A stretch of DNA of 450 nucleotides, from NCBI RefSeq assembly GCF_003334765.1, contig NZ_QOWT01000122.1; one strand, 5' to 3'. Each line of letters opens with the position of its first letter. The first letter of the stretch is position 1. This DNA comes from Escherichia coli (GTDB taxonomy: Bacteria; Pseudomonadota; Gammaproteobacteria; Enterobacterales; Enterobacteriaceae). The translations under genes were made by a program, and so were the position numbers. The notes under the pieces were generated by a model that saw nothing but the letters and a program-made list of their open reading frames with translations, ran no database searches and had not been told where the DNA came from. Shown here piece after piece: positions 1-450 of the stretch.

Positions 1-450
1 GAAGATGTTTTTCTTGCCTTTCTTCTCAACGGTCAGCAGACCTTGTTTGATCGCATACAGCGGAATAGCGTGTACCAAATCGCGCAGGGTGATGCCCGGC
101 TGCATTTTGCCTTTGAAGCGCACCAGAACGGATTCCGGCATATCCAGCGGCATGACGCCAGTTGCAGCAGCAAATGCCACCAGACCGGAGCCTGCCGGGA
201 AAGAAATGCCGATCGGGAAACGGGTATGGGAATCACCACCGGTACCGACGGTATCCGGCAGCAGCATACGGTTCAGCCAGGAGTGGATTACGCCGTCACC
301 CGGACGCAGCGACACACCGCCACGGTTCATAATGAAGTCCGGCAGCGTGTGGTGCGTATTCACGTCAACTGGTTTCGGATACGCCGCGGTGTGGCAGAAA
401 GACTGCATCACCAGGTCAGCCGAGAAGCCCAGGCACGCCAGGTCTTTCAG
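1..450 (-). CDS. acnB: Aconitate hydratase B (aconitase 2; bifunctional aconitase / 2-methylisocitrate dehydratase), internal fragment, partial at both ends
   Basis: Seen in sequence: the reverse complement read in the frame whose first codon is + strand 450..448 gives 150 sense codons with no stop across the whole window. The translation contains GSGxxH-like DGVIHSW and GGDSHTRF motifs and matches my recollection of E. coli AcnB through ...KGKKNIF. Codon usage is strongly E. coli-like: 16 of 17 Leu codons are CTG and 10 of 11 Pro codons are CCG. Established knowledge: the Asp-Ser-His motif and the upstream His are conserved active-site residues of the aconitase family. The identification rests on recalled protein sequence, not a database search. 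Confidence 0.95.

Follow-up and report, generated by a model that had tools for sequence, protein, structure and literature searches.

A codon-optimal acnB fragment of Escherichia coli probably derives from a second, island-borne aconitase gene overwritten by recombination with native alleles

The DNA analysed here is a 450-nucleotide stretch from Escherichia coli (the window), whose coding strand is the minus strand, read in frame 0 through 150 sense codons. Its peptide showed 100% amino-acid identity to residues 425 to 574 of E. coli AcnB (PDB 1L5J chain A), and it scored 335 bits against the TIGR00117 acnB equivalog model at model positions 415 to 564, the whole-protein cut-off of 1287 being beyond the reach of a fragment. 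Aconitase-family NCBIfam models align across the window, which is part of the catalytic portion of the enzyme, and its G-D-S-H sequence (Table 1) is what we take to be the conserved active-site motif of the aconitase family. At the nucleotide level the window is an exact copy of gene nt 1273 to 1722 of acnB2, a gene carried in a genomic island of strain 746 (NZ_CP023353.1, 917273-919870). The full island protein is 99.1% identical to K-12 AcnB and contains PF11791, PF06434, and PF00330, the AcnB architecture of HEAT-like, swivel, and aconitase catalytic domains; by sequence, both the window and the full protein thus belong to AcnB. The acnB2 reading frame was intact in all four island copies translated, and its product differs from K-12 AcnB by eight substitutions (residues 1, 3, 71, 638, 858, and 862 to 864), which presumably lie away from the Fe-S cluster cysteines. 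Three of the six frames of the window are free of stops, namely, the true minus-strand frame and plus-strand frames 0 and 1 (all 450 nt); the latter two are probably "shadow" frames produced by the strong codon bias of the gene, in which CTG reads CAG on the antisense strand.

Table 1. Features of the window (plus-strand coordinates; gene positions are those of acnB2)
Feature	Window position	Strand	Detail or basis
acnB internal fragment	1..450	-	codons 425-574 of 865, in frame, no stop
G-D-S-H codons (AcnB residues 496-499)	226..237	-	read from translation
Divergent patch (gene nt 1491-1578)	145..232	-	10 of 15 synonymous K-12 differences in 88 nt
Exact tract shared with native acnB of 2012C-4221 (gene nt 1354-1644)	79..369	-	291 nt
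Seven single sites unlike all 8 fully compared native alleles, all synonymous	78..358	-	alignment
Sole non-CTG leucine, TTG codon 549	76..78	-	K-12 comparison

The codon bias that a sequence-only reading had pointed out proved exact in every count: 16 CTG and one TTG among 17 leucines, 10 CCG and one CCA among 11 prolines, and four CGT and two CGC among six arginines (minus strand, frame 0). Against a background of 133 other annotated K-12 genes, in which CTG makes up 51.2% of leucine codons and CCG 52.3% of proline codons, the probability of at least 16 CTG in 17 is 2 × 10−4 and that of at least 10 CCG in 11 is 9 × 10−3, while the arginine skew is uninformative (P = 0.28 for six of six), since CGT and CGC together already account for 81% of the background. 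The proposed codon adaptation index (CAI) and GC3 checks were run with a CAI reference of 5,945 codons from 35 annotated K-12 genes for ribosomal proteins and elongation factors. The window reached a CAI of 0.668, compared with a reference median of 0.666 and a background median of 0.379, and 3% of background genes equal or exceed it; its GC3 was 0.68 versus a background mean of 0.552. The preferred E. coli codon set is therefore present as claimed, with a CAI at the ribosomal-protein level, and both values are as high as would be expected at a core locus.

Nevertheless, native-looking codon usage is no proof of a housekeeping locus. CAI values of acnB2 and K-12 acnB were 0.607 and 0.617 for the whole gene and 0.668 and 0.676 for the segment corresponding to the window, so a high CAI or GC3 does not tell the island copy from the native one. 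Both segments use CTG for 16 of 17 leucines and CCG for 10 of 11 prolines, but they arrive at the leucine count through different codons, as K-12 acnB has CTG at codon 549 but CTT at codon 526. Neither the window nor acnB2 as a whole displays the atypical composition looked for in island DNA; the codon usage of both is typical of highly expressed E. coli genes.

A megablast search of 5,426 complete E. coli genomes served to locate the allele. All of them have some acnB and matched the window, but identity of at least 99% was found in only 23, and all 23 carry the window as a second acnB in an island operon; none of the 5,426 genomes had a match of at least 99% at the native locus. The 15 genomes listed among these 23 all matched at 100%, each with two matching places in its record. 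Strains 746 and Santai have the exact match in the second acnB, situated among ISEc38, IS66, and IS100 elements. Exact matches follow citG2 and precede an IS66 remnant, and so fall outside the conserved synteny of the core gene, whereas all nine sub-99% alleles examined lie in the yacH-acnB-yacL-speD context. A probe for the citG2-acnB2 junction was fully covered in 35 of the 5,426 genomes (0.65%), and every one of these carriers has three matching probe places, consistent with retention of the native citG and the native acnB. The 23 genomes with the window allele are a subset of the 35, and the coordinates agree. In a large assembly collection, 351 indexed blocks contain the exact AcnB2 protein, which directly follows citF-citX-citG at all nine places shown; the full gntR-to-citG operon lies upstream at seven of them, one of the others being truncated by CP4-type genes and one cut by a contig end.

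The earlier conclusion of "a chromosomal housekeeping gene, not recently acquired" thus stands in one part, as the sequence is a well-expressed core-type acnB with an interior of E. coli ancestry, and fails in the other, as this copy is borne by an island and the inferred housekeeping location does not hold. We consider it probable that the window is part of acnB2 in an island operon whose paralog-bearing parts have been overwritten by recombination with native alleles. It could instead be a native acnB at yacH-acnB-yacL, of an allele absent from the genomes searched. Codon bias, CAI, and GC3 do not set it apart from native acnB, the acnB alleles of E. coli form a diverse, mosaic set, and the best native allele found, that of strain 2012C-4221 retrieved with a targeted patch probe, is 98.9% identical in the window (5 differences) and contains the exact tract in Table 1. 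Yet this origin is improbable in view of the count of zero at the native locus among 5,426 genomes, the island position of all 23 close matches, and the island context at nine of nine places shown for the exact full-length protein. Two other sources were considered and rejected. The 16 matches in a plasmid collection were megabase-sized records or came from other genera, and none reached 99%; several of the acnB-matching records, of 0.4 to 5.4 Mb and with chromosomal genes, look like misfiled chromosomes or fragments. As for a foreign-species donor of the window, acnB of E. albertii, of the divergent lineage L019, of Citrobacter, and of 44 other Enterobacterales was in all cases at most 94% identical in the window.

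The island operon consists of a divergent gntR, a gene for a cog3618-type lactonase-like amidohydrolase, an MFS transporter gene, citCDEFXG, and acnB2. Only a 25-nt spacer separates the citCDEFXG and acnB blocks in the island, whereas in K-12 they occupy distant chromosomal positions. The gntR, lactonase-like, and MFS genes are without a K-12 counterpart and atypical in composition (CAI, 0.25 to 0.28; GC3, 0.40 to 0.46), and the latter two had matches in 33 of the 5,426 genomes. Both the sporadic distribution of the operon (0.65% of genomes) and its flanking mobility genes are characteristic of island DNA: in strain 746 it is surrounded by kps capsule genes, CP4-type toxin-antitoxin modules, an integrase gene, ISEc38, IS66, IS100, and IS3. 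A search of four loci (L105, L001, L106, and L012; about 130 kb) found no tRNA attachment site or tRNA gene. The surroundings in strain 746 (L001 18240-25656 and L106 27540-29582) also include a frameshifted UxaA-family gene, split aldolase fragments, malX/malY-like genes, and a gene for a 629-aa protein that is annotated as "enterotoxin" in Santai. Farther out lies sul2 with ISCR2, within a pathogenicity-island-like mosaic that includes this resistance gene.

Two parts of the operon have counterparts at native loci. Over 5.2 kb, island citC-citG is 97.8% identical in nucleotide sequence to the K-12 genes of the native citCDEFXG-citT locus (b0612-b0618), with proteins 97 to 100% identical; however, the island has acnB2 in place of citT and a gntR-type regulator in place of dpiBA, and citC2 over its first ~10 codons and citG2 over its last ~15 resemble the Enterobacter operon described below. 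Compared with native acnB (b0118; aconitate hydratase B/2-methylisocitrate dehydratase), acnB2 encodes a protein of equal length, 99.1% identical and with the same Pfam architecture, but the island copy stands at the end of an operon, is found in about 0.4 to 0.65% of genomes rather than in all, and starts with ATG instead of GTG. Its amino-acid changes are concentrated in the first 3 and last 8 residues, and its dN/dS is at least about four times that of native alleles.

Related operons were found in other enterobacterial genera. In Enterobacter (L107 and L108), gntR, amidohydrolase, MFS, and citCDEFXG genes come in this order, and the acnB at the end has decayed. Its remnant in Enterobacter sp. 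comprises 146 nt after citG (L108 about 9093-9239; the same in L107), with an in-frame TAG and a frameshift. Positions 5446 to 13875 of the E. coli island are colinear with this operon at 79% identity, from gntR to 146 nt inside acnB2. The citG-acnB spacer and its ribosome-binding site, as well as an unusual TTAAAAGAA (Leu-Lys-Glu) after the start codon, are common to island acnB2 and the Enterobacter remnant and are not present in K-12. No acnB 3′ remnant was found in Enterobacter beyond the first ~42 codons, so the foreign-type 3′ end of acnB2 is without a comparator. Citrobacter amalonaticus (L118) has an intact operon of gntR, amidohydrolase, a CitMHS transporter, citCDEFXG, acnB, and oadGAB. 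Gene order and orientation in the C. amalonaticus and Enterobacter operons are the same as in the E. coli island, although the Citrobacter operon differs in its CitMHS transporter and the extra oadGAB. Since Enterobacter and Citrobacter share this arrangement with diverged genes of their own, the operon architecture predates its stay in E. coli.

Further arrangements link a trio of such leading genes to aconitases. In Klebsiella oxytoca (L109/L110 1-20311), the trio of gntR, the lactonase-like gene, and CitMHS has citCDEFG and oadGAB downstream, while upstream of it are an AcnB-like gene, two AcnA/X-type aconitase genes, PrpF, and a gene of the isocitrate/isopropylmalate dehydrogenase family; the AcnB-like protein, of 862 aa, is 73% identical to E. 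coli AcnB, and the function of this tricarboxylate cluster is apparently undescribed. In E. fergusonii, the trio lies near aconitases and PrpF. On a metagenome contig (L112, 3-5682), a gntR/lactonase-like/MFS trio adjoins acnB, with a YacL-family gene downstream; the encoded AcnB, an 852-residue partial reading frame, is 90 to 91% identical to native-type AcnBs and has a C-terminus identical to the native type. This acnB-yacL pair looks like a native locus, and the contig provides another independent link between the trio and AcnB.

Among operon-linked AcnBs, that of the E. coli island is the exception. The Citrobacter protein is 88% identical to native-type AcnB with a gene CAI of 0.48, and the Klebsiella protein is 73% identical with a CAI of 0.35 (computed with E. 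coli weights for genes of other genera), whereas the native AcnBs of other genera are 94 to 96% identical to that of E. coli. Island AcnB2, by comparison, is 99.1% identical to the native protein, with a CAI of 0.59 to 0.61. The operon aconitase is a diverged paralog in Citrobacter and Klebsiella and a decayed remnant in Enterobacter, but in E. coli the interiors of both the cit genes and acnB are of E. coli type.

We then compared acnB2 with native alleles. Of its 2,598 nt, 84 differ from K-12 acnB, 72 of these in third codon positions, and 8 amino acids are changed; in the window there are 15 differences, all synonymous. Its distance to 8 native alleles is 2.9 to 3.9%, compared with 0.8 to 3.8% among native alleles, 6.5% to the L019 lineage, and 7.9% to E. 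albertii (the Escherichia comparators among the matches listed were E. albertii, one divergent "E. coli," and "Escherichia sp. ESNIH1," the last at 91% amino-acid identity). Neighbour-joining placed acnB2 inside the E. coli clade with 100% bootstrap support, on the longest terminal branch and with 29 private sites. Its dS of 0.11 to 0.16 is in the native-native range; its dN/dS is 0.03, versus at most 0.008 among native alleles, and a ratio of 0.03 indicates that acnB2 is still under strong purifying selection.

Within the window, the divergent patch in Table 1 differs from K-12 at 11% of sites versus 1.4% in the rest of the window (binomial P of about 1 × 10−4, for a patch picked post hoc). 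A 101-nt probe for this patch was matched exactly by the 23 carriers as well as by one native allele and at 96% in one genome, and in 806 other genomes it fell into a 90 to 95% band (92.1% in the rows listed). The exact native match is in 2012C-4221 (L122 530-3127), a non-carrier with the yacH-acnB-yacL arrangement, whose native allele is also the closest overall, with 57 differences. The allele type of the window is therefore also present, rarely, in the native pool; the 2012C-4221 allele is either of the donor lineage or the result of back-flow from an island copy into the native locus. The seven sites at which the window is unlike the fully compared native alleles are plus-strand positions 358, 232, 193, 190, 187, 166, and 78, corresponding to gene nt 1365, 1491, 1530, 1533, 1536, 1557, and 1645, respectively.

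A three-way comparison of the island, the Enterobacter operon, and K-12 located the transitions between the two sequence types inside coding sequence. Resemblance to Enterobacter extends to codons ~7 to 10 of citC2 (nt 20 to 30) and gives way to a K-12-like stretch from island position ~8500 to 13655. It resumes at about codon 280 of citG2, ~45 nt short of the stop, and continues through the spacer to nt ~24 of acnB2; within acnB2, the breakpoints are at nt 24 and nt 2556. The E. coli-type tracts are therefore bounded within regions of homology and leave divergent ends, which match the Enterobacter operon where comparable. Thirteen signature sites are common to all island acnB2 alleles and absent from native ones, namely, nt 1, 4, 7, 24, 624, and 627 and seven in nt 2556 to 2591. 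Overall identity of island acnB to K-12 acnB is 96.5%, and that of the interior is 96.8%.

Variation among carriers is unevenly distributed along the operon. The lactonase-like and MFS genes are 99.7 to 100% identical in all 33 genomes matched, while acnB2 occurs in at least three allele types differing at 74 to 103 sites (2.8 to 4.0%), and the cit genes differ by up to 2.2%. Between Santai and 746 there are 48 differences in cit and 1 in acnB2, versus 1 in 3,027 nt of the foreign genes (Fisher P = 2 × 10−6), and the 9 differences between acnB2 of B-JRPT-4119 and the 746 type all fall in a stretch of about 400 nt. The excess variation is thus confined to the segments that have native paralogs. 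Exact tracts are shared with native alleles (10 of which were compared in full) over 291 nt in 2012C-4221 and 356 nt in 2017C-4109; such tracts alone are weak evidence of exchange, because tracts of 290 to 360 nt also occur between native alleles.

As to the source of the imported sequence, the donors resemble alleles of other strains, and a converted tract identical to the native copy of the same genome was not found. The sole genome with both full copies compared, SWHEFF_58, has 131 differences between island and native acnB. In 20 of 23 carriers the patch probe found only the island copy, the native gene of most carriers thus lacking the patch. There is therefore no evidence of recent conversion from the native gene of the present host, which points to another host or to incoming DNA as the donor. 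The acnB2 of SWHEFF_58 (L119 3230-5827) is 4.4 to 5.3% distant from every native allele compared, above any native-native pair, and its gene nt 600 to 900 contain 19 private sites in 300 nt, many of them shared with other genera; this allele may keep more of the original island gene as it was before recombination.

We infer the direction and mechanism of recombination from these sequence comparisons. In the history that we propose, an operon with its own aconitase and citrate-lyase set would have existed before its stay in E. coli, and native-type E. coli sequence would then have overwritten citCDEFXG and acnB, in patches and more than once, through ectopic gene conversion or incoming native-type DNA. 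Only the extreme gene ends would have been left foreign, because recombination needs homology on both sides. The CTG and CCG bias, built by translational selection in the highly expressed native acnB, would have come with the imported sequence.

Two histories without such overwriting were weighed against this one. If acnB2 were a plain, fairly recent IS-mediated copy of native acnB, with the native cit genes copied separately, no earlier aconitase, and no conversion, its 96.8% interior identity to K-12 and its place inside the E. coli clade would follow directly; IS elements do flank the operon, and similarity to the native 3′ flank persists for about 25 nt past the stop codon. But a duplication does not explain why the citG-acnB junction, spacer, ribosome-binding site, and first codons recur in the Enterobacter remnant, and it does not account for the intact equivalent operon in C. 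amalonaticus or the way in which E. coli-type sequence begins and ends within coding sequences, between foreign-type ends. Nor could a single event give 3 to 4% divergence of acnB2 beside foreign genes that are at least 99.7% identical, and we regard this history as very unlikely. Even less credible is descent of the whole operon from a divergent, unsampled Escherichia lineage, with the likeness to E. coli reflecting shared ancestry and not recombination. The long terminal branch of acnB2 with its private sites and the distance of the SWHEFF_58 type from all native alleles would fit such an origin, but the gntR, lactonase, and MFS genes are foreign-looking in composition, have no K-12 counterpart, and match in so few genomes, the breakpoints within genes are sharp, and vertical descent cannot explain the unequal divergence of adjacent segments among carriers.

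Recombination between island and native copies has a parallel in tufA and tufB of Salmonella and E. coli, the textbook case of concerted evolution of duplicated genes by gene conversion. As with tufA/tufB, there are two homologous acnB copies per genome, homology-bounded exchange tracts, and purifying selection. Unlike tufA/tufB, however, one partner lies in a mobile operon and was originally a diverged xenolog, and the copies are not kept identical, as seen in SWHEFF_58; exchange appears to be episodic and to involve the alleles of other strains. Both island catabolic operons and paralog recombination are known processes, and what is new is this example of them.

For the codon-usage and GC3 tests that are widely used to tell native from acquired DNA, the window is a clean false negative, and recombination with native paralogs can bring the codons of an acquired operon to the host optimum in a single step. 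In addition, acnB typing or read mapping may be confused by the second copy in roughly 0.65% of strains.

The genes of the operon also offer clues to its function. The island amidohydrolase belongs to PF04909 and scored below the cut-off of the 4-sulfomuconolactone hydrolase model, and the nearest relatives with solved structures, 2FFI and LigI (4D8L), are putative or confirmed 2-pyrone-4,6-dicarboxylate lactonases. In five contexts, among which we count the acnB remnant of Enterobacter and the other aconitase-family genes of E. fergusonii, the amidohydrolase lies beside a carboxylate transporter and AcnB-type aconitases, and in four of them citrate lyase is present as well. Gene neighbourhood and family membership suggest a pathway in which a tricarboxylate lactone or a related acid is taken up and its ring opened, after which AcnB2 would isomerise the product for cleavage by citrate lyase. 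The repeated association, across several genera, of a lactonase-like enzyme and a transporter with AcnB-type aconitases and citrate lyase points to a catabolic pathway undescribed in the literature searched; within the incomplete coverage of that search, neither the operon nor an island-borne second acnB of E. coli is described. More tentatively, and as a conjecture that we rate less likely than not, the module may constitute an undescribed pathway by which enterobacteria use a tricarboxylate lactone or a related acid of plant or dietary origin, with citrate lyase supplied by an AcnB paralog dedicated to this role; the mobile E. coli version would repeatedly swap its own cit and acn genes for host-adapted native alleles. 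If so, the "amelioration" of an acquired operon could be instant, by recombination, instead of proceeding by slow mutation. In B-JRPT-4119 (L012 and L121), the part of the operon upstream of citF is replaced by CP4-type genes beside cadC, and citE is a pseudogene fragment; the pathway is thus decaying in some carriers while acnB2 stays intact.
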